A DNA stretch of 64,000 nucleotides from a virus (lineage: Duplodnaviria > Heunggongvirae > Uroviricota > Caudoviricetes): the IMG/VR virus record IMGVR_UViG_3300029705_000072. One strand, given 5' to 3'. Positions 1 through 49,705 of the stretch are shown here, one piece after another. The number at the start of each line of letters is the position of its first letter. Within the stretch, counting starts at the first letter, position 1. Made by a program: the position numbers and the translations under genes. Under the pieces are notes generated by a model. It saw nothing but the letters and a program-made list of their open reading frames with translations. It was not told where the DNA came from and ran no database searches.

Positions 1-109
1 CACACAGCAGGGCTTCCCCCCGGGTTGCACGGTACACGGTGGAAACACCGACCCACACGGGCAAGCACAGCCACACAGCAGGGCTTCCCCCCGGGTTGCA
101 CGGTACACA
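1..109. repeat. 37-nt perfect direct repeat x2 (1-37, 73-109) separated by a 35-nt unique segment; CRISPR-like geometry at the window edge
   Basis: cacacagcagggcttccccccgggttgcacggtacac occurs twice; spacing 35 nt; the array could continue upstream of the window. Confidence 0.5.
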
Positions 110-580
110 ACAAAAACGCTTGTAATGGTTCCGCTTACTTGAGCGCGACCGTTTCAAAACCTACTTAGAGAGGATATTGCTCTGAGGGCTCTATAGCCGA
201 TATAGCGTCGCCGGTGCTGCGGAGTTAGGCCGCAGGATTCGAGATTGTGAAAATCCCCGGGGTTTTGTGCCTATGAGACCAAACGCGGCTCGCGGAACTG
301 ATGGCTATACGCAAAAGATCTATGAGGGCGACTCTGCTCGCGGTATATCTCCCCGAGGGGATATGTTCCAAGGAACTGATATAATGCAACAAGTCGAGTC
401 ATCTAATTGGGTTGAGTAGCGCGAAGTCCAAGCGAATATTACGAAACCTATATGGTTATCGTTGACTGAGCCGCCCTATATGGGCGGCTTTATTGAGCGA
501 TAACTTAGTTATTGCCAGAATTTTACCATGGGACCGCCTAAGGCGGTTCTGAAAACAGTTTGAATCAACAGGAGGCCAGT

Positions 581-775
581 ATGTCGTATGAAGTTTTTCG
601 CAGACGGGTCAAAAAGTACCTGAGCAAATCCAAATCGCACGCAATATTTGTACATGAGGACGGTCGTCACATCGCAAGATGTATGGACGGTGTGACCATT
701 ATCGGGAACACTGTTTCCGAACTCGTAACAGTGAAATGGGGATATGGCCATTCTGCCATGATTCAGTTATCATAA
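581..775 (+). CDS. hypothetical small protein
   Basis: ORF with GGAGG RBS 7 nt upstream of ATG (MSYEVF...). Confidence 0.5.
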   Translation: MSYEVFRRRVKKYLSKSKSHAIFVHEDGRHIARCMDGVTIIGNTVSELVTVKWGYGHSAMIQLS

Positions 776-891
776 GCCGGATTTTCCGGCACCTTAATGC
801 AGCCATCAGGATTTTTCCATGATGACGGTCACAAGTCCGTGAAAATGCAGAGTGAAGGGTTTTTCATTTTTGAAATCGAAAGGAGAAAAGT

Positions 892-1644
892 ATGGCTATT
901 AACAACGACGCAGCCGAAAGAATGGCGAAGCTGAGAGCCGAAGCAGAAGAAGGAATCAAGGAATTCAACGAGCTGTATCAGGAAGAAAAACTGGTTGCTG
1001 CTATGAAGGTGAGAGAGGAAATCGAAAAGAAGGTTGCCGAATACACCAAGGAAGCACGGAATTTGTGTTTTCAGGAATGCAAGGAAACCGAAAATCCCAT
1101 TCTTGAAGCGGTTACCCGCCTGACCTTCAACACCATCAAAATCGGTGAGGAAAAGGGTCGAGATGGCGCGCCTGATGTGAGCAAAATCGAAGATATCGCG
1201 AAGGCTATCGACCTGAAGGGTCTTCATGATTTCTGTGGTGGTATCGGCGCGGACAAAAACTGGATCCATCACGCTATGAAGATGAATTTCCTCCTGACCG
1301 CCCAGAAGGCCAAGGATTTGGGTATCGACCCCAAGGAAATCCATGACAGTTATGCCATGAGCGAAATCGCCCGGGATTTCGATATGGGCAAGAATCCCAC
1401 CAGCAATACCAACCTGCTCCGTACTCTGCAGATGGTAATCACTTCCATGCTCGGCGATGGGTACAAGGCTACCAGTCACGATGTGGCTTTCCTGGTATCC
1501 GTGTATAGCAAGAAGAATCGCAGAGCGCTGACCGTATCCGTTGCAAATCACAAGAATTTCAGAAACTACATCGCTGAAATCTGCCACAGAATCGTAACCA
1601 ACAAGCGTTATGATGTGGATTATAAGAAGAAGAAGGAAAAGTAG
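892..1644 (+). CDS. hypothetical protein (250 aa), strong RBS, followed by terminator
   Basis: AAAGGAGAAAAG-ATG; long clean ORF; hairpin plus T-run at 1719-1756. Confidence 0.7.
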   Translation: MAINNDAAERMAKLRAEAEEGIKEFNELYQEEKLVAAMKVREEIEKKVAEYTKEARNLCFQECKETENPILEAVTRLTFNTIKIGEEKGRDGAPDVSKIEDIAKAIDLKGLHDFCGGIGADKNWIHHAMKMNFLLTAQKAKDLGIDPKEIHDSYAMSEIARDFDMGKNPTSNTNLLRTLQMVITSMLGDGYKATSHDVAFLVSVYSKKNRRALTVSVANHKNFRNYIAEICHRIVTNKRYDVDYKKKKEK

Positions 1645-1718
1645 AATCTGATTTTTAAAAAATTCAGGATCCTAAAAATCCAAGTTTTCGAAATCCATCA
1701 AAAGGGGTTTTGAATATA

Positions 1719-1756
1719 GCCCGCTCGGAACTGACTTCCCGCCGAGCGGGTTTTTC
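1719..1756 (+). terminator. rho-independent terminator
   Basis: cccgctcggaactgacttcccgccgagcggg + ttttt. Confidence 0.7.
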
Positions 1757-1795
1757 GTGCGGCCTACGGGTTTTCCGGTTCAATTCCGGGTGGCC
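1757..1795 (+). other. tRNA-like T-arm/acceptor minihelix element (copy 1 of a recurring post-terminator motif)
   Basis: gcggcc-tacgggttttCCGGTTCAATTCCGG-gtggccgc; resembles the tRNA-Gly T-arm ccggttcgagtccgg in this window. Confidence 0.4.
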
Positions 1796-2781
1796 GCTCT
1801 TTTCTGTGTCTCATTATATAAAACCGAATCGGCCTTCGGGCCGGTCGGTAATGCGGCCATTCTGAGGTTTTTCAGAATGACGGTCCCAAGCCCGTATAAA
1901 CCGCAGAGGGACGAAGGTTTTAGTTTTTCATGTATCTGCTCCTGGATAGGGCGGCGGAATCTGCGAAATAAAAAGAGTTCTACTATAGAAATTATGAGGT
2001 TCGAACTCGTCTGATCCTTGAGCGGAACATGGGAAATGCGTAGTAGAAAGGCGAATATCAAAATGGTAGAAGGTCTGATTTTTGCTGGCATGGTAGTTGG
2101 TTTTATGGCCATGCTGCTCATCATGGTAGAAATTGCTCTTAGAATCGCGGCTAAGCGGATTCCTAAAATCAAGGAATTTATGGAATTCTGCGACGAGGAA
2201 GAGGCTTAGTATGGCAGAACTGTTTTGTTTCGCTTTTATGATGGTGCTTTTGAGCGTCCTTGCGGTCGCCGGTGAAATTGCTGAGCGACTCGATAAAGAT
2301 GAATGGAAATCCAAAGAAAGGGGCGGTAGGTTTTGAATGGCTTTGTGGCTGCCGCCACGGTTTTGAATTCGATATCTGTACTTTTATGCTCCATAAAACT
2401 CCTATTTGATGGTTCTATAGGATTCGTTTATGCCGGGGTTTTCCTGGTTTTAGTTGGAGCGGTTTTGGATTTTTTAAGTCTGATCAAGGATTTCGTTATC
2501 GCAGAAGGAGGCAAAGATGGAAGAACTGAGGGTAGTTTTCGCCATTCGTGAAACCGGCCAGAGGGTCGACAAAGTTTTCGATTCTGCGTATCGGTGCCGG
2601 CTCTTCATCAACAAACTTCGGCGCTCGAAAAAGCTGAAGCTGATTTCGTATCCGAACATCCTGATGTAAATATAAGGAGGCATATGAATAGCAGAAAGAA
2701 TGTGAGATTGCCCACCCGGTAATCGATGGAAAATTGAAAATCAACAACAGAAAACCAAAAAAAATGACATACATCAAAGCC

Positions 2782-2803
2782 CAGAATTTCTGGGCTTTTT
2801 TCA
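2782..2803 (+). terminator. rho-independent terminator
   Basis: cccagaatttctggg + ctttttt. Confidence 0.7.
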
Positions 2804-2811
2804 CAGGTATG

Positions 2812-2845
2812 GGAATTTTCCGGTTCGACTCCGGAGCCGGTGACC
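2812..2845 (+). other. tRNA-like T-arm minihelix element (copy 2)
   Basis: gggaattttCCGGTTCGACTCCGGagccgg, identical core to copy 3. Confidence 0.4.
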
Positions 2846-2869
2846 GACAACAGAAAGGAGAACAGGTAT

Positions 2870-3112
2870 ATGTGTAATGTTATCAGAGTTGTAGGCGGTG
2901 CTTTTTCTTCGCTCGGCCTTATCATGTCCGCAATTTACATTTTCGGAGAAAAGTTCTACGGAAACACGGTACTTTTCGTTCTGTGTTCGGTAGCGGCGTG
3001 TGCAATTTCTGCGCTCGTTGAGTGCGTAAACGAGGAACTCTTGCTCCGTAAGTTTATCCTTATGGTTATCAACAGAGAAATTGATATTGAATTCGAAAAA
3101 GAGGACCTTTAG
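2870..3112 (+). CDS. small membrane protein
   Basis: AAAGGAG RBS 8 nt before ATG; hydrophobic ORF. Confidence 0.5.
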   Translation: MCNVIRVVGGAFSSLGLIMSAIYIFGEKFYGNTVLFVLCSVAACAISALVECVNEELLLRKFILMVINREIDIEFEKEDL

Positions 3113-3137
3113 GAGCCAGGTTTCTGGCTCTCATAAT

Positions 3138-3218
3138 GCTCCGATAGCTCAATTGGTTAGAGCGCACGGCTTATACCCGTGGAATCTGCTGGGGGTTCAA
3201 GTCCCTCTCGGAGCACCA
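3138..3218 (+). tRNA. tRNA-Ile (anticodon UAU), encoded CCA
   Basis: acceptor gctccga/tcggagc, D-arm gctc..gagc, anticodon loop cuUAUac, T-loop ttcaagt. Confidence 0.75.
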
Positions 3219-3479
3219 TCGGACCGCGATCGGGTCCCAGTGTAGCGTCCTTGTTAGTTTAAGGGTGAAACTAACTCTTGTCAGTAATGGTGAAACTGTC
3301 CCGTCGGGATATAACGGTAATTCCTTGCGTTTGTGGTGCGAGGCAATTATCCCAACCACATATGTCAACTTAGTTTAAGGCAAGAACACTGCGCTTATGA
3401 TGCAGAGGTATCAGTTGAAGTCTGATAGTTGACTCCCGAAAGGCCTACGGGTGGCTCTCAGGAATAGACTGAGGCATGC
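3219..3479 (+). ncRNA. structured non-coding segment between two tRNAs (unknown RNA)
   Basis: no credible ORF; internal repeats ttagtttaagg x2 and ggtgaaact x2; long-range complement gtcaact(3366)/agttgac(3431); several hairpins. Confidence 0.3.
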
Positions 3480-3554
3480 GCCGTCATGGCTCAATGGTAG
3501 AGCGGCTGCTTTGTAAGCAGCGGGTTGGGGGTTCGAATCCCTCTGGCGGCTCCA
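3480..3554 (+). tRNA. tRNA-Thr (UGU)
   Basis: acceptor gccgtca/tggcggc, anticodon loop ttTGTaa, T-arm ggggg-ttcgaat-ccctc, CCA encoded. Confidence 0.85.
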
Positions 3555-3686
3555 TAGGTGGACGCATCCACCACCATTAAGCCTCCAAGCAAGAGTGGCA
3601 GTCTGGAAAGACAGACACACACCCGGGGCGACCAAATATCGAAGCCGATGAATGGTTCTTCACAGCCCTCTTCGAGGCGCGTCCCG

Positions 3687-3734
3687 GGCATCCTGTCGCT
3701 GGAGGTCAGCGGTTCGAACCCGCTATGGATGCCA
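3687..3734 (+). other. tRNA-like minihelix (acceptor stem + T-arm only, 48 nt)
   Basis: ggcatcc ... agcgg-ttcgaac-ccgct ... ggatgcc-a; too short for a full tRNA. Confidence 0.4.
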
Positions 3735-3736
3735 AA

Positions 3737-3776
3737 CCCACCGATATCCCTTATCGGTGGGAGTTTTTGTATTTTT
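3737..3776 (+). terminator. rho-independent terminator closing the tRNA operon
   Basis: cccaccgatatcccttatcggtggg + tttttgtatttttt. Confidence 0.8.
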
Positions 3777-3799
3777 TGATTTAGAAAAGGAGAATCGAA

Positions 3800-4114
3800 A
3801 TGAGAAAGGGTGCAAGTAAAAAGACAGAAGCAGTTGCCGTTAAGACCGGATGCGCTTTGCTGGACATGTGTATGCCCGTACTCGCAGAGCAGACCGTTGA
3901 AGCTCGGAAGGTTGCGAGACGCAGACCTGATATCACAGTACAGATGGCCATTGTTGCATATGCAAAATCCGGCATGAGTATCAGCAGAGCAGCAAAGTCC
4001 CTGAATGTTGAATACCACATCGTGAAGAACCGCATTGATGTTGCGGAAAGGGTGTATGGTATGGATCCGAAGGATTTCTTTGGTCTGACCAAGATTCTGA
4101 TTTTGATGTCCTAA
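3800..4114 (+). CDS. small DNA-binding (HTH-like) protein
   Basis: RBS AAAAGGAGAATCGAA-ATG; segment ISRAAKSLNVEYHIVKNRID looks like a helix-turn-helix. Confidence 0.5.
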   Translation: MRKGASKKTEAVAVKTGCALLDMCMPVLAEQTVEARKVARRRPDITVQMAIVAYAKSGMSISRAAKSLNVEYHIVKNRIDVAERVYGMDPKDFFGLTKILILMS

Positions 4115-4132
4115 ATACATAGGTCACACAAA

Positions 4133-4157
4133 CCCCGGTTGCAAAATCGGGGTTTTA
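4133..4157 (+). terminator. rho-independent terminator
   Basis: ccccggttgcaaaatcgggg + ttttatt. Confidence 0.7.
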
Positions 4158-4165
4158 TTATGGGC

Positions 4166-4197
4166 GAAAGGGTTTTTCCGGTTCGACTCCGGAGTCG
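4166..4197 (+). other. tRNA-like T-arm minihelix element (copy 3)
   Basis: ggcga-aagggtttttCCGGTTCGACTCCGGag-tcgcc. Confidence 0.4.
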
Positions 4198-4224
4198 CCA
4201 AGATAGTTTTTATTAGAAAGAGAG

Positions 4225-4452
4225 GTGCAAGATATGGGTATTTCTAAAGAACAAATGATCGATGTCGCCGTTTCAAAGATGGAAACATGCATGGCGCTTC
4301 TCGGCAAAGAAGAGGAAGCACATGTTTTCGCAAAACGTGCGGTTGAAATCAGCAGCAGGTTTTCAGAGATGTTCGGAGAGCGAATCGAAGATGTAAATGA
4401 GCACTTCGACGACATGGTAAGCATAGCAATCGCTAAGGGCGTAGAGGTTTAG
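4225..4452 (+). CDS. hypothetical protein
   Basis: RBS gagaggtg; 75-aa ORF. Confidence 0.5.
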   Translation: MQDMGISKEQMIDVAVSKMETCMALLGKEEEAHVFAKRAVEISSRFSEMFGERIEDVNEHFDDMVSIAIAKGVEV

Positions 4453-4460
4453 GAGGGAAT

Positions 4461-4772
4461 ATGAGTATCAGAATTGGGGATGAGGTTTGGTGCATGCCCC
4501 GTTCTGAGGCATTAGAAGTCTACCCTTACGGAGTTCTTCCTCCGGACGGCCTCGAATGGTATCAGAAGTGTGTTGTCACTACTATTGAAGGCGATACGAT
4601 CGGAGTAGATTTTGGAGTGGAAAACCTTGCTGGCCAAGAACTGCACGCACTGAATGGGGCGCTTAATTCCCATACGGGCTGGTATCTTTCAAGTGGATAC
4701 CTGGTTCATAGTTGCCCAACAGATATAGAACTTGATGAAAGCGACGAAGATATCAGCCTGATAATTGGTTGA
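4461..4772 (+). CDS. member 1 of a 5-member paralog family (GD-V ... LHSC ... W-L ... acidic E/D-I-x-L tail)
   Basis: shares motifs with ORFs at 4792, 12092, 12468 and 12847. Confidence 0.6.
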   Translation: MSIRIGDEVWCMPRSEALEVYPYGVLPPDGLEWYQKCVVTTIEGDTIGVDFGVENLAGQELHALNGALNSHTGWYLSSGYLVHSCPTDIELDESDEDISLIIG

Positions 4773-4791
4773 TAAAATGAGGTTTTGATGC

Positions 4792-5094
4792 ATGGAAAAT
4801 ACTTTTAAGGTCGGCGATTTTGTTCGTATAAAAGAAGGTACTGGGGTATCGACTAGCGGAAGTTATTACAAAGTCCCTTATGAGTGGTGTTTATACGAAA
4901 CACCGAGAGTTATAGCTGTTAATAGCAATTCAGTCGGAGTGGAATTTAGTAATTGTGCAGGAGAGCTTCATTCGTGCGCCGGACAAGGAAGACCGGACCA
5001 CTGTTACTGGTTAGATCCGTCTTTGTTGGAGTTCTGCGATATTTTTGATGATGAGATTTCTGAATCCGACGAGGAAATCAGCATTTTATTCTGA
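4792..5094 (+). CDS. paralog family member 2
   Basis: FKVGDFVRIKEGT...ELHSC...HCYWLDPSLL...ESDEEISILF. Confidence 0.6.
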   Translation: MENTFKVGDFVRIKEGTGVSTSGSYYKVPYEWCLYETPRVIAVNSNSVGVEFSNCAGELHSCAGQGRPDHCYWLDPSLLEFCDIFDDEISESDEEISILF

Positions 5095-5111
5095 TAGTAA
5101 GGAGTGGTTTT

Positions 5112-5528
5112 ATGATAAGAGAATCCGAATTCAGGGAAAATGTGACAGTGTTTTCCGAACTCAAAGAGTTCTGCGATGACAACGGGTGCGATCTTCTCGA
5201 CGAAGTGCGTGATCCAGATTATTTCGATGACGAGGTGGATAGCTGGTTGTACGACGCAATTCGGTACGGCGATTATGGATGGGAGAGTATAAGAGACAAT
5301 CTTGATGGATTACAAGCCCCAGACGACTGGTATGTACAAGAAGATGGGATTTTTGAATACTATTATCCAGATTTCCGGGACTATTTCGACGACGTTCTTG
5401 AGTGGGCGATAGATAACGAAATAGTAGAAGCTGATAGCAGTGACGACGATGACGATATCGACGAGTTCGATGACTCGGAAGATGTTCTCGAACTTATCGG
5501 TGACTTTATCTTCGCTGCGTGTGACTAA
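5112..5528 (+). CDS. highly acidic protein (poly-D/E), DNA-mimic candidate
   Basis: 138 aa, long DDDDDIDEFDDSED runs; RBS aaggagtgg. Confidence 0.5.
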   Translation: MIRESEFRENVTVFSELKEFCDDNGCDLLDEVRDPDYFDDEVDSWLYDAIRYGDYGWESIRDNLDGLQAPDDWYVQEDGIFEYYYPDFRDYFDDVLEWAIDNEIVEADSSDDDDDIDEFDDSEDVLELIGDFIFAACD

Positions 5529-5658
5529 ATAAAAGGAGAGTGTACGAATGGGAAGAAAAATCGAACCTCATGTAAATTTCTGTGAACTCCAGAAAGCATA
5601 CTCGATTATTAGCGTAATCGGCAGGGTTCCCTTTGTCTGGTAACGGAAGGAGTTTACG

Positions 5659-6240
5659 ATGGGAATTAGAAATTTTATTTCGGACAACGCAGTCTGGAAG
5701 TTCGCAAAGCGCAATTCAGAACGTCTGCAAAAAGAGTTTGCCGTGATCATGAGTAACGACGACGAAGGATATAAGTTCTGTGTGAGCATGGACAAGGATA
5801 CCGTAATCCTTACAATCTTCAATAAGTTCGGAGATACGTCGTATATAACGGAATGTCAGGGCGAGGAAGATTGCCTGAGGAATGTAAAATGGCTGAGAGA
5901 ACTTTATTTCAAAGAGAAAAAGGTTATCGAGAAAACCGACAAGAAGCCAGATTCTTTTGATTCCCCTGGTGAATATCTGATGGAGTTTATCGACGACGAA
6001 AGGGAGGCAAGCCTTAGAATTGCGCTCGAAGACTTCATGTATGTTGTAGCCGGCTTCGATAGCAGGGAAGATGCTGAAATGGAGTACGGCGTTGGAATAA
6101 TGGAAGCCGTTCTCGATGATATTCTGCGGCTTCTTCTGGATGACTTCGGTATTTCGGTGTACAGACCGGCCATAGTACCGGAAAAGAAAACAGGGGAATT
6201 CGTCATGAGCGAATACCCGTACGATGACATAGGGAATTAA
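5659..6240 (+). CDS. hypothetical acidic protein
   Basis: 193-aa ORF, RBS ggaaggag. Confidence 0.5.
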   Translation: MGIRNFISDNAVWKFAKRNSERLQKEFAVIMSNDDEGYKFCVSMDKDTVILTIFNKFGDTSYITECQGEEDCLRNVKWLRELYFKEKKVIEKTDKKPDSFDSPGEYLMEFIDDEREASLRIALEDFMYVVAGFDSREDAEMEYGVGIMEAVLDDILRLLLDDFGISVYRPAIVPEKKTGEFVMSEYPYDDIGN

Positions 6241-6334
6241 CCCTATTAAAAAGGTAGGCAGTAGGATTACCTACATAACAATATTACCGCGCATAAGCGG
6301 CTTTTTTAATGCAAAAAAAAAGGAGGAATTGTGT

Positions 6335-6724
6335 ATGTCTAAGTTTGTAGTAGCAGGTGATGCAGTTGTTGTAACCTCTGCGGTGAAGTTCGACGATATC
6401 GTCGCACTGAAGAAGTACCGCCCCGAAGCCCTGTGTCTGAAGGACGAAGAGGGTCGTGTAATTTTCAAGGTGGGTATCGGCGCTACCGGTGGCGTAAGCG
6501 ACTTCGGCATTACCTTCACCAGCGAAAGCAACGATGATAAGGGGTTTGCACAGGTAACCATCATCGCACCCGACCATGATGGCGATGCAAAGGCCGCGGT
6601 TGTTGACAGCCATTTCGTTGCAATCGAAAAGCTGGAAAAACTGGAAAAGCATATCGCAGAAGAACTCGCTTCTGTAGAGGAAATGAAGAAGAAGATTTCC
6701 GAATCCGTGTCCGTTGTGGCATAG
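6335..6724 (+). CDS. hypothetical protein; first gene of the Ubl/JAB/E1 cluster (speculative E2-like: ...YRPEALCLKDEEG...)
   Basis: RBS AAAGGAGG; single Cys in an RPEALCLKD context reminiscent of the UBC HPN-x-CL-D motif (weak). Confidence 0.45.
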   Translation: MSKFVVAGDAVVVTSAVKFDDIVALKKYRPEALCLKDEEGRVIFKVGIGATGGVSDFGITFTSESNDDKGFAQVTIIAPDHDGDAKAAVVDSHFVAIEKLEKLEKHIAEELASVEEMKKKISESVSVVA

Positions 6725-6801
6725 AAAACATGTCTGCTGGGCGGTATGTGTGATTGCATGCCGCCCTTATTTATAACTTGAGTACGAAAAGGAGAATAAA
6801 A

Positions 6802-7044
6802 ATGGTACAGGTAAGAATCAGAAACAATTTCGCAGATATCACCGAGGTCTTCAGCGTCGATATGACCATTCGCCAGATTCTGGCCGAGAAGGAGCAGGCA
6901 ATCGATGGCTGCACCGTTTCTCTGGATGGCTACGCACTGAGTGCATCCGATATGGGCAAGACCCTCCTGCAGCACGGCTATGATGGAACCACCGGTAAGG
7001 ACAGATGTAATCTGACCATCGTTGCCAAGACCAATAATGCATAA
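6802..7044 (+). CDS. ubiquitin-like beta-grasp candidate (81 aa), no C-terminal GG
   Basis: Length and hydrophobic periodicity align with ubiquitin (MVQVRIRN.. / ..LDGYAL..TLLQHGY / NLTIVAK vs MQIFVKT / LEDGRTLSDYNI / LHLVLRL); RBS AAAAGGAGAA. Confidence 0.4.
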   Translation: MVQVRIRNNFADITEVFSVDMTIRQILAEKEQAIDGCTVSLDGYALSASDMGKTLLQHGYDGTTGKDRCNLTIVAKTNNA

Positions 7045-7071
7045 GTAACGGCCGGCACAAAGCCGGCTTTT

Positions 7072-7157
7072 GGGGAGTTGGCAGAGTGGCTTAATGCAGC
7101 GGTCCTGAAAACCGTCGATCGAAAGATCCGTGGGTTCGAATCCTACACTCCCCGCCA
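7072..7157 (+). tRNA. type II (long variable arm) tRNA, probably Ser (UGA)
   Basis: acceptor ggggagt/actcccc, variable arm gatcgaaagatc hairpin, anticodon loop ccTGAaa, T-arm gggttcgaatcc; the annotated ORF 7078 starts inside it. Confidence 0.7.
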
Positions 7158-7182
7158 TAAAGAAAAACAGGAGAGGTGTATT

Positions 7183-8604
7183 ATGTTTAAGGAGATTATT
7201 ACAAGAACTGCGCTTTGCAATATCGACGCAAATCAGTACTTCAGTAACATTCGAGGAGACTCATATATGGGCGACGTAACGTTCTTGTCCACACTCAGAG
7301 CTCTCCTGATGAACAGAGTTGATAAAGAAGAGGAACTGCAATTTGTGGTGTCCAGAAGAAGAGTAAGCAACACGCTTAACAACAGAGAACTTGTTAGAGA
7401 GGCTATTGGCGAGCCGGAATATCTCGACAACAACACTTTTTTCCTTGTTGACCTCTCGGGTCCAGTCGATAAAAACAAAGAGATCATTGGTAGACTTGAA
7501 AAATTAATGCCCGAAAGAGGGTTTGAGAATCTGCAGAAGGTCCGTGTGTTTTACAAAAAATCCTTTGAGGTAGCAGCATTTGCCAACGCTAAGAAAAAAA
7601 TCACCGTTGTGGTTGTTGGCAATATGGATATCAGAAAGTATCACTATCTGCAGTGCGCGACGTTCGCTCTCTTCCCTTGGTACTTCAATCCGAAAGATGG
7701 TTGTAGCGAACTCGAAAGACGAATGATCGAAGCAATGCGTCAGAAAGACGGTGATGAGTGCACTGCGTGTTATGAGGAGTTCGCAAGTGGTTTGGATTTC
7801 CGTACCGGAAAAATCAAATCCGCTTTTGAGGGGTTTGAAGAGTCGTTTTTCCTGAAACAGAAAGATAATCTTACTTCTCAGATTAGAAGTATTGACTCTG
7901 ATGTGGAAAGATATCAGAAGACTATCAGAGATATGCTTCAGAAGCGCAGAAATTACATGATGAATCTTGCCGGAATCGACCTCGGTCTCAAACAGGCTAA
8001 CAGCGGCGAACTTGTGGATTATTTCCTTCGGAACAAAAATCTCTCAGTTGTCGATGCGGTCGGGGACTATGTGTATTTCACCATAGACACATATATTACA
8101 GATTTTGTAATCGACGACGCAAAGCCCATAATCGAAAACAGTAGAGGGTATATACATGACGCTATCATGGCAACACCGGATCCCGATGGCACAAAGGCTT
8201 TGTTTAAAGAAATTTTTACAGAAGAGGATCCGCGAATTAGAATTAGAACGAAGGCAAAAGTAAGAATCGGCAAGAGCGGGTCTTTCGACAGCGATAGACC
8301 GATCGGACAGGGCTTGATAAATGACGAACTCAACGACCAAGTCCAGAATACTCATATCTGTAGATATAGCTGTTTTGGCAGTGAAAGAGAGGAGTTTTTT
8401 ACAGAAGCGCTCTCTAGACAGGATCATGTTATGATTGTCGAACAGTGTATCGCTGCGGCTAGAAATCTTAATTTCAACGACAGTATTGTTGGAAGAGATT
8501 TCTTCAACGATCTCGTAAGAACAAACGGAAGGGTGTTTGAGGTTATTGAAACCGGAGAGAAAATGAACCTGGCGGACGCTATTAAGTGGGTAAAGGAGAA
8601 TTAG
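7183..8604 (+). CDS. large hypothetical protein (473 aa), first ORF of an operon with JAB and E1
   Basis: start moved to MFKEII (RBS ACAGGAGAGG) because upstream in-frame codons are tRNA sequence; overlaps the next gene. Confidence 0.6.
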   Translation: MFKEIITRTALCNIDANQYFSNIRGDSYMGDVTFLSTLRALLMNRVDKEEELQFVVSRRRVSNTLNNRELVREAIGEPEYLDNNTFFLVDLSGPVDKNKEIIGRLEKLMPERGFENLQKVRVFYKKSFEVAAFANAKKKITVVVVGNMDIRKYHYLQCATFALFPWYFNPKDGCSELERRMIEAMRQKDGDECTACYEEFASGLDFRTGKIKSAFEGFEESFFLKQKDNLTSQIRSIDSDVERYQKTIRDMLQKRRNYMMNLAGIDLGLKQANSGELVDYFLRNKNLSVVDAVGDYVYFTIDTYITDFVIDDAKPIIENSRGYIHDAIMATPDPDGTKALFKEIFTEEDPRIRIRTKAKVRIGKSGSFDSDRPIGQGLINDELNDQVQNTHICRYSCFGSEREEFFTEALSRQDHVMIVEQCIAAARNLNFNDSIVGRDFFNDLVRTNGRVFEVIETGEKMNLADAIKWVKEN

Positions 8605-8606
8605 TT

Positions 8607-9398
8607 ATGTCCAGCATTATTAAAATTACCGATGACTACATCGAAGAATGCGTAAAAGAGTTCAAAGACGAACTTATTAAGTGCAGGATGGACGGGAAAT
8701 CCGAAATCAATTTCAAAAAAACGGTTTCTTCTGATAGCGAAAAGGCCGTCCTTTATATCGACTCTGCGGCGTATGCGAAGATGCAGGCTCTTGTATCTTC
8801 TTTTGACAAAGAGGTTGCATGGCATGGTCTTGCAGAGCGGATGGGGGACGAAAAACTCCACTGCTATCGAATTTATGACATCCTGTGTTACCCGCAGATT
8901 GCAGGAGCCGTAACGGTAGAGTCCGACGACGAAAGATACGGCGGCTGGTTTGATAAGCTCGAGAGCGATCAGGTAAACAATATGAGAATGCAGGGGCATT
9001 CACACGTTAATATGAGCGTTTATCCGTCAGTAACCGACGATAAGGACAGAGCGAACATGTTATCCATGATGCCCGGTGATGCATTCTATATCTTCATGAT
9101 TTGTAACAAGCGCGGTGAGATGAACACAAAAATTTACGACATGAAGAAGAATAAAATGTTCGGCAACCACGAAGTGTCCGTATATGTTTACACTGACGAT
9201 ATGGCTGAATTCATTAAGGAAGCCAAGGATTTTGTTAGATCTGTTGCGGTAGTGACCCCGATTCAGAAAGTAAATCAGGAGAAGGCGGTCGAAGAAAAGA
9301 AAAAAAACGAAAAAAGAGAAGAAAAAAGCGTAGGTAATCATAAGTACTCGTACATCGATGATACATGGGATGGTTACGAGGACTATGCATATATGTAA
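8607..9398 (+). CDS. JAB/MPN (JAMM) metalloprotease, deubiquitinase-like
   Basis: JAMM motif H-S-H-x7-S-x2-D present (HSHVNMSVYPSVTDD); RBS AAGGAGAA. Confidence 0.7.
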   Translation: MSSIIKITDDYIEECVKEFKDELIKCRMDGKSEINFKKTVSSDSEKAVLYIDSAAYAKMQALVSSFDKEVAWHGLAERMGDEKLHCYRIYDILCYPQIAGAVTVESDDERYGGWFDKLESDQVNNMRMQGHSHVNMSVYPSVTDDKDRANMLSMMPGDAFYIFMICNKRGEMNTKIYDMKKNKMFGNHEVSVYVYTDDMAEFIKEAKDFVRSVAVVTPIQKVNQEKAVEEKKKNEKREEKSVGNHKYSYIDDTWDGYEDYAYM

Positions 9399-9415
9399 AG
9401 AAAGGAGATGCTATC

Positions 9416-10087
9416 ATGGATTTGTCTAAGAGCTACGATTTCTTTAAGCCTGAAACGGACAAGAGTAGAATTCACATCATTGGATGTGGCTCCGTCGGTG
9501 CAACGGTTGCTGAAAACATTGCAAGATGCGGTGTGAAGAACTTCCATCTGTGGGATTTCGACAAGGTCGAGCCTCATAACATTGCAAACCAGCCGTTCAG
9601 GCACAAAGATATCGGCAAAGAAAAGGTAGAGGCGCTGAAAGAAATGATCTGTGAGATCAATCCGGACGCAGCTGATAGCGTTGTGCTTCATAACAAGGGT
9701 TGGGACGGCCAGAATCTCACCGGCTATGTCTTCCTGTGCGCAGATAGTATGAATGTTCGTCGAAATGTTGTAGAGCAGCACATGATGAGCACCAATATCA
9801 GAGCAATGTTCGACTTCAGAACCAGACTTACTGACGCTCAGCATTACGCAGCCGACTGGGCAGATCTCCGAATGAAAGAGAACTTTTATAAGACGATGGA
9901 TTTTTCGGATGAAGAAGCAGAAGCGGCAACTCCCACATCAGCGTGTGGTGTATCTCTTTCTGTATGCCCGACAATCAGAATTATTAGTGCATATGGCGTT
10001 GCAAACTTCATGAACTTCTGGAGGGGTGAGCCCATTAAGAAGATGATAGTTGCAGACGCATTCGCTTTTGACACGATGGCTTTCTAG
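9416..10087 (+). CDS. E1-like adenylyltransferase (ThiF/MoeB/HesA family), minimal 223 aa
   Basis: Rossmann motif IIGCGSVGA; D-x-D-x-V-E-x-H-N-I-x-N-Q (DFDKVEPHNIANQ); RBS AAAGGAGATG. Confidence 0.8.
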   Translation: MDLSKSYDFFKPETDKSRIHIIGCGSVGATVAENIARCGVKNFHLWDFDKVEPHNIANQPFRHKDIGKEKVEALKEMICEINPDAADSVVLHNKGWDGQNLTGYVFLCADSMNVRRNVVEQHMMSTNIRAMFDFRTRLTDAQHYAADWADLRMKENFYKTMDFSDEEAEAATPTSACGVSLSVCPTIRIISAYGVANFMNFWRGEPIKKMIVADAFAFDTMAF

Positions 10088-10428
10088 TCAAAAGCCATAT
10101 TTGCGATGCATTCTTTACGACGGTAAAGGCTGTTCGCTATGTAAGCAACAGTAACAAATTGTTCAACAGGGGAACGGGCGGGCAGACGACTGAAGGAGCT
10201 GCAGAAGGCGCCGGCATAAAAATCAAGACAATGAATCTAACGTCCAAGTCCAAACGCCATAAGGAAAACCTCGAAAACGAAAACCCGACGAGGTGAGAAC
10301 AAACCTGCGAAGAGCACCCAGCAAACCTACCTGTCCTCCCAAGACCAGGATGAGGACATCCTCCGTCCCAGCGGTCCTGATCGTTGACGCCAGAAAACAT
10401 ATTTAGATCGCAAAAGAAAGGCACAACT
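10088..10428 (+). ncRNA. structured non-coding region upstream of the RT (candidate RT-associated ncRNA/template)
   Basis: about 340 nt without ORF; hairpins (ctttacgacggtaaag); short inverted repeats at both ends (tttgcgat / atcgcaaa); shares the blocks agtaacaaattg, ctgaaggag and aacaaacctgc with region 11581-11975. Confidence 0.4.
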
Positions 10429-11580
10429 ATGATTTATGTAACAGTAAAGCAGTCACCGGTATTCAAGCAGATGTCAATAGAAGACCTGCTCTTTGGTGAC
10501 TTCGACAACAAGAAATTCGAATTCTTTTCGAACGGCGTATCTTCTACGAAGACATACGCCGTTTCTTATTTGTCCGAAAGAATGTCTAAAAATATTGGGG
10601 TGGATATCGATAACCTGATTGATAAGTTGAAGGCTTTTAATAATAACTACGCTGATCTTATGAGCATGGAACGAAGAGAGTTATATTCCACCTTCCATAT
10701 CCCCAAAAGAAGTGGCGGTCTTAGAAAGATCGATAATCCGTGCCCCGAACTGAAGAATGCACTCTATGTTCTTAAGGGTATTTTCGAAAACGATTTCCAT
10801 GCAATGTACCATACCAGTGCGTTTGCGTATGTGAAAGGTAGATCTACCGTAACAGCTGTTAAGAAACACCAGGCAAACGAGAGTAACTGGTTCGGCAAAT
10901 TCGACCTCACAAACTTCTTTGGAAGTACAACTATCGACTTTACGATGAAAATGCTTTCGATGATTTACCCTTTCAGTAGCGTAATCGAGAAGGCAGAGGG
11001 CGAGGCAGAACTCCGTAAGGCATTAGACCTTGCGTTTCTGGACGGAGGTCTTCCGCAGGGTACACCGCTTTCTCCCATGCTCACAAACATCATAATGATT
11101 CCAATCGACTTCGAACTGAACAAGGAGTTTAGAAACCTGAACGGTAAAAAGTTTGTGTACACAAGATACGCAGACGACTTCCATATTTCTTCAAGAACGG
11201 ACTTTAAGGTGTCTGAGGTAGAAGACGCAGTAATTAAGGTTCTTGAAAAGTACGGTGCACCTTTTTCACTTAACAGAAAGAAGACGAGATACGGCTCTTC
11301 TGCAGGTAGAAACTGGATTCTTGGCACGATGCTGAATTCAAACAATGAAATCACCGTTGGCCATAAGAAAAAGAAGCAGGTTCAGGCGATGATTCATAAC
11401 TACATCAGAGACAAGAAGTCCGGTATCGACTGGGATAAGAACGACGTTCAGGTTCTCAGTGGATATATCAGTTACATCCAGATGGTTGAAGGTGATGTGG
11501 CTAATAGAATAGTCGAGCACATGAACCAAAAGAACGATGTTGACCTGTTCAAAATGATCAAGGAAGACATTGCAAAATAG
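10429..11580 (+). CDS. reverse transcriptase (stand-alone prokaryotic RT; retron/DRT/UG-like)
   Basis: RT motifs: IPKRSGGLRKI (1-2), AFAYVKGRS, FGKFDLTNFFGS (3), LPQGTPLSPMLTN (4), YTRYADDF (5); about 100-aa N-terminal and about 140-aa C-terminal extensions, no endonuclease or maturase domain. Confidence 0.85.
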   Translation: MIYVTVKQSPVFKQMSIEDLLFGDFDNKKFEFFSNGVSSTKTYAVSYLSERMSKNIGVDIDNLIDKLKAFNNNYADLMSMERRELYSTFHIPKRSGGLRKIDNPCPELKNALYVLKGIFENDFHAMYHTSAFAYVKGRSTVTAVKKHQANESNWFGKFDLTNFFGSTTIDFTMKMLSMIYPFSSVIEKAEGEAELRKALDLAFLDGGLPQGTPLSPMLTNIIMIPIDFELNKEFRNLNGKKFVYTRYADDFHISSRTDFKVSEVEDAVIKVLEKYGAPFSLNRKKTRYGSSAGRNWILGTMLNSNNEITVGHKKKKQVQAMIHNYIRDKKSGIDWDKNDVQVLSGYISYIQMVEGDVANRIVEHMNQKNDVDLFKMIKEDIAK

Positions 11581-11975
11581 TAAAAAATGCCGCTAAAACC
11601 GGCGTTTTATAAACAGCATTGCGTATTACAACGAGTTAATATCCGTTGTGCTATTCGCTAAAAGCAGTAGTAACAAATTGCTGGACCAGCCAGGAGAGCT
11701 GCCGCATCTGAAGGAGGCGGGATCAGTAGCCAACAAACCTGCTTGCATAGTCAAACTACGATACAACTGCTGGCAAAGAATATAAGGCCAAAACAGGGCT
11801 TGAAAATTCAACAAACGCAGAGAGCAGCAACCGGTCAATAAAAGATGAAGCATCTCATAAAGAGTTAATTATGATTAGTAAAATCGGCGAAAACCAGGTA
11901 AAAGCATATTAAGGCAATGTTGTTATAGTGAAAATCACGCGCAGCCAAAACGACTGCTCCGTAATAGCCGGAGAT
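11581..11975 (+). ncRNA. second non-coding region downstream of the RT, partly homologous to 10088-10428
   Basis: no ORF; hairpins acaacg..cgttgt and gctgg-a-ccagc; shared sequence blocks with the upstream region. Confidence 0.35.
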
Positions 11976-11978
11976 TAT

Positions 11979-20516: not shown

Positions 20517-21671
20517 TTGGAAATCTATTTAGATAACGCAGCGACTACAAAGATAGACGATCGAGTGGTCGATGCAATGATGCCGTATTTGAAAGAAGAG
20601 TACGGCAACCCTGGCTCGCTCCACTTAAAAGGAGCGAGAGCGAGGGATGCCATAGAGAGCGCGAGATCGTCGGTTGCCAGATTGTTGAATTGTGATGCCG
20701 GTGAGGTAATATTCACGTCTGGGGGTACGGAGTCGAACGCGACGGCGATATCTGCGTACATTGAGGAAAACGCAATGAGCGCGCACAAGAACATAGTTGT
20801 TACGGAAACCGAGCACAAGTCTGTTCTGGCGGCAGTTGAAAAGGCAAAGAGATTCGGATTTAGGGTTACATACCTAAAACCGACGAGTGATCCGAATGAC
20901 TTGATTGCCGGACTGAAAGAGGTAATCGTTCCGGATGCCGGTCTTGTTTCCGTAATGTATGTTAACAATGAAACAGGTGCCGTTAATCCTGTGGAGGAAA
21001 TCGGAAAGATATGCAAGGCAAACGGTCTTACGTATCATGTCGATTGTGTTCAGGCTGCGGGCTGCCATCCAATCGATGTGAAAAAGATTGGATGCGACTT
21101 CCTTTCGATCTCCGGACACAAGATACATGGTCCAAAGGGTGTTGGTGCGCTGTTCGCAAAACGTGAATTTCATCCACTAATTTCAGGCGGTTTTGACCAG
21201 GAATTTGGGCTGAGGGGTGGTACTGAGAACGTACCAGGTATCGTCGGTCTAGGGGCCGCTAGTAGCCTCGTAGACCTATCTGACATCAACTATGTGTCAT
21301 TGCTGAAGCAGACCTTCTATCATAATTTGACCAAGGAGCTGCAGGCACTAAAGGAAGATACAGGTGTGTCGGTTAACGGTCCGAGTGTTATAACGCCTGG
21401 AAGAATTTTAAATTTAAAAATTGATGGAGTTGACGCCCAGACACTCGTTTTAATGATGAGTGCCAAGGGCGTTTATATTTCTGCTGGTTCCGCATGCAAC
21501 AGTCATGATTCTGAGCCGAGTCATGTTCTGTTGTCAATGGGGTTGACGCCTGAGGAGGCAAGAAGTTCTGTTCGTGTTTCGTTCTCCAGAATGAATACGG
21601 CAAGTGACGTTGTGCGCGCCGCAACAGTAATGGCTGAGTGTATTCAGCTGCTTAGAAAATGTAATGAATAA
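20517..21671 (+). CDS. cysteine desulfurase (NifS/IscS-like class V aminotransferase)
   Basis: YLDNAATT, FTSGGTESN and SISGHKIHGPKGVGALF motifs (PLP-Lys); TTG start with RBS GAGGAGG. Confidence 0.85.
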   Translation: MEIYLDNAATTKIDDRVVDAMMPYLKEEYGNPGSLHLKGARARDAIESARSSVARLLNCDAGEVIFTSGGTESNATAISAYIEENAMSAHKNIVVTETEHKSVLAAVEKAKRFGFRVTYLKPTSDPNDLIAGLKEVIVPDAGLVSVMYVNNETGAVNPVEEIGKICKANGLTYHVDCVQAAGCHPIDVKKIGCDFLSISGHKIHGPKGVGALFAKREFHPLISGGFDQEFGLRGGTENVPGIVGLGAASSLVDLSDINYVSLLKQTFYHNLTKELQALKEDTGVSVNGPSVITPGRILNLKIDGVDAQTLVLMMSAKGVYISAGSACNSHDSEPSHVLLSMGLTPEEARSSVRVSFSRMNTASDVVRAATVMAECIQLLRKCNE

Positions 21672-48460: not shown

Positions 48461-49705
48461 ATGTCCGAAAAAAGAAGAGATAGCAAAGGACGTATTCTTT
48501 GGAACGGAGAGTTACAAAGAAAAGACGGTAAATACGAGTTTCGGTATACAGATTTAAAGGGGGAGCGCCATAGCGTATATAGTTGGAAACTGGTAGATAC
48601 GGATAAAGTACCGCAAGGAAAACGGTGTAAAGAGTCTCTCAGAGAGATTGAAAAAAGAATAAAACGTGACCTCGATGACGGATTAGATGCGAGGCTTATC
48701 GACAGAATTAAGGTAAACGACATTGTCATAGACTGGCTAGACATGGTGTGTCCTAGGCTGAAAATGAATACAAAGACGCAATACTGGAGTATGTACAAGA
48801 CATATATAAAAGACAGTATTGGACCTATGAAGGCATCTGAGATAAGGCCGTCTCATATAAGAAAGCTTTATACGAGCATACTTGTCGATCGGAAACGTAC
48901 TTTTAGAACGGTAGCTGTGTTAAACGTAATTATAACCGGTGCATTTTCTTCAGCGGTTAACGATGGCATAATCAGAAAGAACCCATCAATAGGAATCACA
49001 AAAGAACTGTCAAGACTTAACAAAAAGGGAAAGCCTGTTGTGGCGTTGAGCAAATCGCAACAGGAAAGACTTTTAAGATTTGTTCGTGGTCACCAAAAGT
49101 ACAGTAGGTGGGAGAACGTTATACTGGCTCTTCTTGGTACCGGGTGTAGAATCGGCGAGTTAGTCTCGTTGGTTGCCGGTGATTGTAATTTCGAAGAGTC
49201 TTACATCAACATACAAAGGGGTGTGTTCTACAAGAACGGTAAGAAGCAAATAGAGATTACAACAACAAAGTCTGAAAGCGGTATGCGGATAATACCTATG
49301 TTCGATGATGTTAGATCTGTCATACTAGAAGAACTTGGTGTAGAATCTCCGATGCAGATTTCAAATCTCGATGAACCAATATTTAAGAGCGTAACCGGCG
49401 ATATGCTACTGCCATCATCCGTAGAGGGAATGATGAGGCGACTGAAAGAGGCGTACAACAAATACGACGAACAGTTGGCTGCGGAAGAGAATAGGCGGCC
49501 AGATCCGATAGAAAGGCTCACGCCGCACGTATTCAGACACACATTTTGTACGAGGCTGTGTGAAAAAACATCCGATATAAAAATAGTACAAGAAATTATG
49601 GGGCATGCCGACATATCGGTTACTATGAATGTCTACAACAATATAAGTAAGGATAGGAAGATAGAAAGGTTCAAAGACTTCGGTGAATCCATCTCGGAAA
49701 TTTGA
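48461..49705 (+). CDS. int: tyrosine integrase (Int-Tn family)
   Basis: N-terminal arm-binding domain; catalytic box LTPHVFRHTFCTRL...IMGHADISVTMNVY. Confidence 0.9.
   Translation: MSEKRRDSKGRILWNGELQRKDGKYEFRYTDLKGERHSVYSWKLVDTDKVPQGKRCKESLREIEKRIKRDLDDGLDARLIDRIKVNDIVIDWLDMVCPRLKMNTKTQYWSMYKTYIKDSIGPMKASEIRPSHIRKLYTSILVDRKRTFRTVAVLNVIITGAFSSAVNDGIIRKNPSIGITKELSRLNKKGKPVVALSKSQQERLLRFVRGHQKYSRWENVILALLGTGCRIGELVSLVAGDCNFEESYINIQRGVFYKNGKKQIEITTTKSESGMRIIPMFDDVRSVILEELGVESPMQISNLDEPIFKSVTGDMLLPSSVEGMMRRLKEAYNKYDEQLAAEENRRPDPIERLTPHVFRHTFCTRLCEKTSDIKIVQEIMGHADISVTMNVYNNISKDRKIERFKDFGESISEI

Follow-up and report, generated by a model that had tools for sequence, protein, structure and literature searches.

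The 64,000-nt stretch of DNA analysed here (IMG/VR record IMGVR_UViG_3300029705_000072, referred to throughout as the window) is DNA of an uncultured gut phage of the Clostridia type. Its genes include those for a DNA polymerase, a DnaB-like helicase, an integrase and a reverse transcriptase, it has 11 tRNAs (as called by ARAGORN), and its first 4 kb form the beginning of a rightward operon of small genes that is dense in tRNAs and also carries a RAGATH-16 RNA and two twister ribozymes. Within this operon lie four short elements, W1 to W4, each with a T-arm of the GGTTCRANYCC type outside any canonical tRNA (GGTTCAATTCC in W1, GGTTCGACTCC in both W2 and W3, and GGTTCGAACCC in W4). The motif is a real, non-random mimic of the top half of a tRNA set in a ribozyme-rich phage operon, and the anatomy and surroundings of the elements suggest that they are most plausibly processing signals for tRNA enzymes. 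The elements, and the terminator-like hairpins that precede the first three of them, are as follows.

1718-1755, + strand: terminator-like hairpin T1 with T-tract (11 bp, 13-nt loop; hairpin 1718-1752), ending 6 nt before W1
1759-1798, + strand: W1 minihelix; closing stem GCGGCC (1759-1764) with GGCCGC (1792-1797), T-stem 1774-1778 with 1786-1790
2776-2801, + strand: terminator-like hairpin T2 with a run of six Ts (10 bp; hairpin 2776-2798), ending 7 nt before the 5′ edge of W2
2806-2845, + strand: W2, T-arm only; T-stem 2819-2823 with 2831-2835, loop TTCGACT (2824-2830), GGG at 2811-2813
3687-3734, + strand: W4; 7-bp stem GGCATCC (3687-3693) with GGATGCC (3727-3733), T-arm AGCGG-TTCGAAC-CCGCT (3708-3724)
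4130-4156, + strand: terminator-like hairpin T3 with T-tract (11 bp; hairpin 4130-4155), ending 6 nt before W3
4162-4200, + strand: W3 minihelix; closing stem GGCGA (4163-4167) with TCGCC (4195-4199), T-stem 4177-4181 with 4189-4193

A first-pass annotation had described three intergenic sites with a shared core, and a genome-wide motif search bears this out. The 19-mer TTTTCCGGTTCRAYTCCGG is present in three exact copies in the 64 kb (1771-1789, 2816-2834 and 4174-4192), all on the + strand, with no copy expected by chance and none in 100 shuffles; a covariance model built from W1-W3 finds no fourth copy in the 64 kb, and ranks the T-arms of true tRNAs next. In the core, a 5-bp stem (TCCGG/CCGGR) closes a 7-nt loop, TTCRAYT, that satisfies the T-loop consensus at every constrained position. 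The related pattern GGTTCRANTCC occurs 12 times in the window, always on the + strand, nine times within the 11 tRNAs and otherwise in W1-W3. That the core copies the T-arm of tRNA-Gly, as had been proposed, is approximately right: tRNA-Gly is the only one of the 11 tRNAs with a CCGG T-stem (GCCGGTTCGAGTCCGGT), and 14 of 17 positions are equal to the element. The differences among the copies are, as read from the sequence, of the kind tolerated by an RNA T-arm. The loop of W1 departs from that of W2 and W3 at two positions, confined to R57 and N59, which are free in the consensus, and the single T-stem difference is a change from U-A to U-G, a pair that is kept only in RNA.

The same letters can be read at the level of DNA, as a 17-bp inverted repeat (TCCGG-N7-CCGGA) acting as an operator, as a promoter for a phage polymerase or as a recombination site. 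At sites 2 and 3 a perfect 5+7+5 palindrome lies between the terminator and the ribosome-binding site (RBS), the identity of the core exceeds what an RNA structure needs, an HTH_30 protein encoded at 3800-4114, just upstream of W3, is a candidate operator binder, and related phages encode an RNA-dependent RNA polymerase (RdRP)-type polymerase (PF05183) and integrases upstream of the region. Nonetheless we regard such a site as very unlikely. First, the spacer fits the T-loop consensus TTCRANY, for which the chance is about 1 in 1000 if it is unconstrained. Second, neither the U-A to U-G change nor the covariation of the closing stems described below has a meaning for double-stranded DNA. Third, site 1 is about 290 nt short of the next gene, and a ribozyme occupies part of that gap. 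Fourth, no sigma-70-like promoter is seen at the W sites or behind them: a scan of positions 1-8000 for −35 and −10 hexamers spaced by 16-18 nt gives eight sites against 11.4 expected, and none at or just after the motif (1757-1830, 2803-2860 and 4158-4225). Finally, the integrase of the window lies at 48.4 kb with no T-arm fragment nearby, and tblastn finds no homologue in the window of the relatives' RdRP-type polymerase. The same search finds none of their YonV_C protein, integrase or HU, and by itself it speaks neither for nor against a promoter for a phage polymerase. The suggestion in the first-pass annotation of a promoter-associated structure is disfavoured by the lack of a sigma-70-like match, by the improbability of a chance T-loop match and by the absence of room for a promoter at comparable junctions (see below). 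The W sites were also considered as the core of a phage attachment site (attP) and rejected, the integrase gene being at 48461-49705, the three copies 44-47 kb away from it and no T-arm motif lying near it.

Around the core of about 24 nt, which is nearly identical among the copies, the flanks of W1 and W3 are unrelated in sequence yet complementary in the same register. The two resulting closing stems have an identical layout: a 9-nt linker with GGG and then Ts, the T-arm, a 1-nt spacer and the 3′ strand. In W1 the linker is TACGGGTTT, the T-loop is TTCAATT (1779-1785) and an unpaired T (1791) separates the helices; in W3 the linker is AAGGGTTTT, the loop is TTCGACT and the unpaired base is a G (4194); neither has a CCA. 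The acceptor-like helix is 6 bp in W1, 5 bp in W3 and 7 bp in W4, with a spacer of 1-2 nt, and is missing from W2; the stacked layers number 12 in W1 (6 + 1 mismatch + 5) and 11 in W3. The 6-bp Watson-Crick stem of W1 has p 0.014-0.022, and the chance of finding such stems at random positions, with any linker length, is 2% for 6 bp and 8% for 5 bp. In the shared register both sides are changed in four of six stem pairs between W1 and W3, and in five of six across the three copies; covariation as high as this is seen in 4 of 500 column shuffles, and is far lower in slid registers. The minimum free energy structure of W3 is the minihelix and accounts for 68% of the ensemble. The earlier description of the core as embedded in a closing stem accordingly holds for sites 1 and 3 and fails at site 2, where two outer pairs form in the shared register and the fold is no better than shuffles (z −0.25), and likewise the reading as a tRNA mimic is upheld by a canonical T-arm in every element and an acceptor-like stem at two of the three sites and in W4, but finds no such stem at W2.

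W2 and W3 share a 51-nt stretch (73% identity, repeat family D1) that includes the 3′ half of the preceding terminator, which indicates that a unit made up of terminator and T-arm was duplicated as a whole; W2 resembles a copy from which the 5′ strand of the stem has been lost. Such a history raises the question of whether the elements are decaying remnants, hairpin-tRNA modules that have lost their D and anticodon arms, were duplicated within the genome and have no present function. Consistent with decay are the loss of the closing stem in W2, the duplicated stretch with its part of a terminator, the TA at the start of the W1 linker (as at tRNA positions 8-9), the absence of the elements from the relatives searched, and a full tRNA-Leu in one relative (L057) at a similar position before an RBS, with weak similarity to W3 and the RBS downstream of it. 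The pattern of divergence speaks otherwise. It is uneven, a near-identical core standing against unrelated yet complementary W1 and W3 flanks; the loop substitutions all fall at positions free in the tRNA consensus; and the same 9-nt linker is an implausible product of three independent internal deletions. We therefore consider decay unlikely for the set as a whole, while it is possible above all for W2; were the elements only remnants, they would be a minor curiosity of tRNA-rich phage genomes.

W4 had been described as a different minihelix, of acceptor stem and T-arm, that closes the tRNA cluster, and so it proves: the 7-bp stem plus T-arm has p about 0.003-0.006, and the element is the last of the cluster, directly before a terminator at 3737-3761. 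It has a 14-nt linker, a 2-nt spacer and a discriminator-like A at 3734, and a competing hairpin (CGCTG/CAGCG) is predicted within it. The region 3552-3770, comprising the 180 nt between tRNA-Thr and terminator T4 and including W4, folds far better than shuffles (z −4.5, 0 of 200), and has no Rfam match and no homologue in the relatives. W4 was also considered as part of a transfer-messenger RNA (tmRNA), of an intron-containing tRNA or of a hepatitis delta virus (HDV)-like/theta ribozyme, none of which is supported by Rfam or ARAGORN. A 145-nt spacer of unassigned nature (3219-3363) lies between two tRNA-Ile(TAT) genes.

None of the four elements is recognised as a tRNA or as a known ribozyme. 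ARAGORN does not call W1-W4 as tRNAs in its default, intron or mitochondrial mode (at an 80% threshold it gives implausible calls overlapping W1 and W4), and the Rfam tRNA model RF00005 does not match them at E <= 10. In W1-W3 the D arm and the anticodon arm are absent, with the 9-nt linker in their place, and none of W1-W4 has the CCA that all true tRNAs of the window except Ile2 encode. There is no ribozyme or RAGATH match on W1-W4 (cmscan with Rfam 15 over 1650-4250, E <= 10), and an antisense-tRNA-like Rfam family matches exactly 1759-1799, the position of W1, with E 0.007. A terminator scan flags the upstream hairpins and not the W elements; W1 is followed by TCTTTTCT, and no U-tract follows W2 or W3.

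The surroundings of the elements recall those of the true tRNAs and ribozymes of the operon, of which the following are relevant here.

191-262: RAGATH-16 RNA, 71 bits, above the gathering score; in the same place in most relatives
791-858, + strand: second twister-P1 ribozyme, upstream of a 250-amino-acid gene; 57.7 bits, E 3e-11, just under the gathering score
1845-1914, + strand: twister-P1 ribozyme in the same intergenic region as W1; 63.4 bits, E 7e-13 (gathering score 67.2); conserved in relatives
7050-7157, + strand: hairpin-tRNA reference module; hairpin 7050-7068, 3 nt, tRNA-Ser 7072-7157, then RBS and start about 25 nt downstream

A terminator 5-15 nt before each site had been reported, and hairpins of 10-11 bp do end 6-7 nt before W1-W3. 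A distance of 20-40 nt to the next RBS had been reported as well, and agrees with sites 2 and 3, where the elements end 24 nt (W2) and 33 nt (W3) before start codons with good ribosome-binding sites (ATG 2870 and ATG 4234), though not with site 1: W1 is followed by a hairpin, then by the twister-P1 ribozyme, and it is about 265 nt to the next start (2063). A hairpin ending 3-9 nt upstream is found for six of the eight window tRNAs that are not directly behind another tRNA, compared to 12% of random positions, and tRNA-Ser at 7072 forms a full hairpin-tRNA-RBS module with the layout of W2 and W3; W1-W3 thus occupy the tRNA position of a recurring hairpin-tRNA module. A Shine-Dalgarno sequence and start codon lie within 60 nt downstream in 78 of 122 distinct tRNA contexts from the window and related contigs. 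At junctions where a terminator leads to an RBS with no element in between (3761-3800 and 6766-6803) there is no room for a promoter and, since the W sites also lack a sigma-70 match, the downstream genes are probably reached by read-through, which would make the W elements part of the transcript.

Comparison with other phages was made through the 250-amino-acid gene beside W1, for which a protein search returned 671 homologues, the best with 65% identity. The loci compared comprise 54 from viral contigs, 13 contigs from genome assemblies (mostly metagenome bins) and seven other contigs, and the binned contigs are mostly from Oscillospiraceae, Acutalibacteraceae and other Clostridia. In the same region and on the same strand the relatives carry RAGATH-16, RAGATH-4 and RAGATH-36 RNAs, twister and HDV-like ribozymes, tRNAs and one tmRNA. 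The slot directly after the 250-amino-acid gene holds W1 and a twister in the window, an HDV-like ribozyme in L009 (which has two), and hammerhead-type cores (CTGATGAG ... CGAAAC), seen by eye, at L015:1628-1690 and L031:7815-7880; a scan of L015 with Rfam does not report its core at E <= 0.01. The tmRNA of one relative (L069:4418-4827, 115 bits) and suppressor-type tRNAs with anticodons TTA and CTA (L008:2446-2520 and L049:10821-10915) were noted in the course of this comparison; the latter hint at stop-codon recoding in some of these phages.

Non-canonical tRNA-like elements are maintained elsewhere in phages, as three groups of loci illustrate. The first is present at the same place in several relatives:

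L056:12598-12650, and the same place in L051, L052, L055, L059, L060 and L070: 52-nt mini-tRNA with a 7-bp acceptor, a 4-bp hairpin and a T-arm

Across six relatives, pairing in this mini-tRNA reaches 98.7%, and three positions of the T-stem show compensatory changes; the element overlaps the stop codon of a 214-amino-acid gene, and a hairpin and tRNA-Met come next. The second is an acceptor/T-arm minihelix at L015:3988-4032 and L016:3393-3437, in two of the closest relatives (63% identity in the marker protein, the product of the 250-amino-acid gene), with a 2-nt linker, an encoded ACCA end and a strong terminator directly after it. The third group comes from a scan of viral contigs, which gave eight loci. 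One of them, L008, proved to be a true tRNA-Met; L002, L006 and L007 are tRNA-like but long; and only L001, L003 and L004 are comparable to the W elements. In L001 and L003, which are unrelated phage contigs, a terminator-minihelix-RBS layout lies near Hammerhead_II ribozymes, and one A-to-G change in the minihelix keeps its pair as G-U. L004 (10490-12075, minus strand), also an unrelated phage contig, has three T-arm elements within 1.6 kb that are not called as tRNAs, each 20-30 nt upstream of a gene start and one of them with a 6-bp closing stem overlapping a stop codon. The best new family match of covariance model R1, in L049, was rejected as part of a true tRNA-Leu. No close relative of the phage is present in any collection searched, and the cultured-phage collection yields only tRNA matches for the region and none for W3 with its flanks.

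These observations lead us to propose that the W elements are minimal substrates for RNase P and RNase Z which, in the manner of the t-elements considered below, cut read-through transcripts. We put the probability of this reading at roughly 45%; transcription through the terminators, folding in vivo and cleavage are what we infer from anatomy and context. W1-W3, and probably W4, would be transcribed within a long rightward polycistronic RNA and would fold as mimics of the acceptor/T-arm top half of a tRNA. In a tRNA precursor, RNase P and RNase Z recognise the stack of acceptor and T-arm, and in Bacillota precursors lacking CCA are RNase Z substrates. Host RNase P would then cut at the 5′ edge, 6-7 nt past the preceding hairpin, and the upstream message would keep that hairpin as protection at its 3′ end. 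RNase Z, given the lack of an encoded CCA, would cut just past the 3′ edge, freeing a downstream message with a short leader, and CCA addition would follow excision. By this route the elements, relying on host enzymes, would play the part that falls to true tRNAs and to twister, hammerhead and HDV-like ribozymes in neighbouring slots. Among the functions offered in the first-pass annotation, punctuation by RNase P/Z has the strongest support from context, since the elements share a slot with true tRNAs and self-cleaving ribozymes both in the window and in relatives.

Several observations weigh against this proposal. First, with 5-6 bp the closing stems of W1 and W3 are short, a mismatch layer adjoins the T-stem, and each stem by itself is only modestly significant (p 0.014-0.08); the stems are not significant when G-U pairs are allowed (p 0.46-0.49), so that their support comes from the Watson-Crick-only and same-register tests, and the single-sequence folding energies of the W elements do not differ significantly from shuffles (z −0.25 to −1.7). 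Second, W2 lacks a closing stem, and a T-arm by itself is a poor substrate for RNase P or RNase Z. Third, recognition by these enzymes does not account for the conserved GGG-TTTT linker. Fourth, T1-T3 resemble efficient intrinsic terminators, which places the extent of read-through RNA in doubt. Finally, the motif is present in none of the 60-odd related loci, and in a scan of metagenome contigs for the 19-mer 116 of 120 matches lie outside called tRNAs, most of these being chance matches in the coding sequence of unrelated genes (for example after an ATG). Absence from related phages had been named beforehand as evidence that would count against the elements, and it is what the family loci show; it is weak evidence, because the closest relative is only about 65% identical in the conserved neighbouring protein.

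A broader form of the proposal is that, in this family of gut Clostridia phages, true tRNAs, minihelices of about 40 nt and at least three classes of self-cleaving ribozyme can stand in for one another as "cut here" cassettes, each set behind a stabilising hairpin within a single long operon. We offer this only tentatively, and consider it less likely than not. If correct, the minihelices would be naturally evolved minimal substrates of RNase P and RNase Z, the conserved GGG would mimic the docking of the D-loop on the T-loop, and there would be an argument that phage ribozymes and RAGATH RNAs serve mRNA punctuation.

The linker raises a further explanation, that the excised minihelix of about 40 nt is itself the product, a trans-acting, tRNA-like small RNA that serves as decoy or substrate for an enzyme reading the tRNA elbow or acceptor end (for example a CCA-adding enzyme, T-loop modification enzymes, a host tRNA-targeting defence nuclease or the phage reverse transcriptase). 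The core, GGG-TTTT linker included, is conserved far beyond the needs of processing, and its GGG could mimic the docking of D-loop G18-G19 on the T-loop; the minihelix of L015 and L016 has an encoded CCA; and among the proteins of the window are a reverse transcriptase, a ThiF-family protein, a class-V aminotransferase and a radical SAM protein. We think such a product improbable, since neither a stable RNA nor a partner is directly evidenced, W2 would form no closed minihelix, and the tie to the named enzymes is guesswork.

The W elements start with GGTTTT, and this hexamer (often as GGGTTTT(T), followed by C or G and then A) is strongly over-represented on the + strand in window positions 1-5200, in L009:6744-11141 and in the family loci. 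There are 13 copies in the first 4 kb of the window and 0-7 in other 4-kb bins, and 34 relatives average 7.0 copies per 6.5 kb downstream of the marker gene as opposed to 0.9 upstream. The copies are found in terminator tails, hairpin loops and coding sequence.

Several other features of the window deserve mention. The reverse transcriptase (RVT_1, E 1e-19) is encoded at 10384-11580 and is followed by about 400 nt of non-coding DNA (11581-11978) before tRNA-Gln; the locus may be a diversity-generating retroelement or another retroelement. The ThiF-family protein (9365-10087), the class-V aminotransferase, of the cysteine-desulfurase type (20517-21671), and the radical SAM protein (58086-59411) could make up a pathway of sulfur transfer or nucleoside modification with tRNA or DNA as its target. 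At the left end of the window a perfect 37-nt direct repeat is present at 1-37 and 72-108, with a similar tandem repeat in the same place in L009 (5270-5390), and the contigs of many relatives stop about 700 nt before the marker gene; a genome end, a packaging site or an origin may lie here. Directly after a hairpin, TTGAGCGATAA occurs at window 493-503 and at L009:5919-5929 (the L009 marker protein has 51% identity), shortly before the rightward operon's first gene; it is a candidate for the −35 region, or for an operator, of that operon's promoter.

There are several known systems with which the W elements can be compared. In mascRNA/MALAT1, at MEN-beta 3′ ends and in mitochondrial tRNA punctuation, a tRNA or tRNA-like fold follows a stabilising 3′ structure, and RNase P makes a protected 3′ end. 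The mascRNA (RF01684) systems are eukaryotic and mascRNA is a near-complete cloverleaf; the Rfam mascRNA model matches only the true tRNA-Thr in the window, and not W1-W4. Among phages, the C4 RNAs of P1 and P7, the CI RNA of P4 and the stable RNAs at the end of the tRNA cluster of T4 are non-tRNA RNAs matured by tRNA enzymes via an acceptor-like helix. These RNAs are longer, have known functions in trans and bear no sequence relation to the W elements; W4 likewise closes a tRNA cluster. True tRNAs (RF00005) and their pseudogenes have in common with the W elements the T-arm consensus, an acceptor-like stem, the orientation, and the position after a hairpin and before an RBS, whereas the W elements have no D arm, no anticodon arm and no CCA.

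Self-cleaving ribozymes such as bacterial twister and hammerhead have been proposed in reviews to cut polycistronic transcripts (PMC6765202). The ribozymes and RAGATH RNAs of clostridial phages and prophages (twister-P1 RF03160, HDV-F-prausnitzii RF02682, Hammerhead_II RF02276, RAGATH-16, RAGATH-4 and RAGATH-36) are found in the same slots, on the same strand and with a similar size as the W elements, but unlike them W1-W4 match no family model, have no known catalytic core and would rely on host enzymes. The presence of ribozymes, tRNAs and minihelices in equivalent slots suggests a model in which all are transcript punctuation, some self-cut and some cut by host enzymes. For the part that self-cleaving ribozymes and RAGATH RNAs play in bacteria and phages, this operon offers a concrete, testable model.

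The t-elements of plant mitochondria are tRNA-like elements at the ends of mRNAs, found with a GGTTCRANYCC search, and have been proposed, and in part shown, to guide cleavage by RNase P and RNase Z, from which mRNA 3′ and 5′ ends arise (Forner et al. 2007, PMC1920247). Like the W elements they are intergenic, non-tRNA combinations of acceptor-like and T-arm helices at mRNA borders, without a canonical cloverleaf. They differ in belonging to organelle genomes and in often being more cloverleaf-like, several having mapped ends and non-encoded C or CCA additions (PMC1920247), whereas the W elements are of phage origin, about 40 nt long, have a 9-nt linker, are coupled to a preceding hairpin and are known here from sequence alone. 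If the W elements do direct cleavage by tRNA enzymes, then phage operons would join organelles and a few eukaryotic long non-coding RNAs as settings for tRNA-like processing signals, and very small natural RNase P and RNase Z substrates would be gained.

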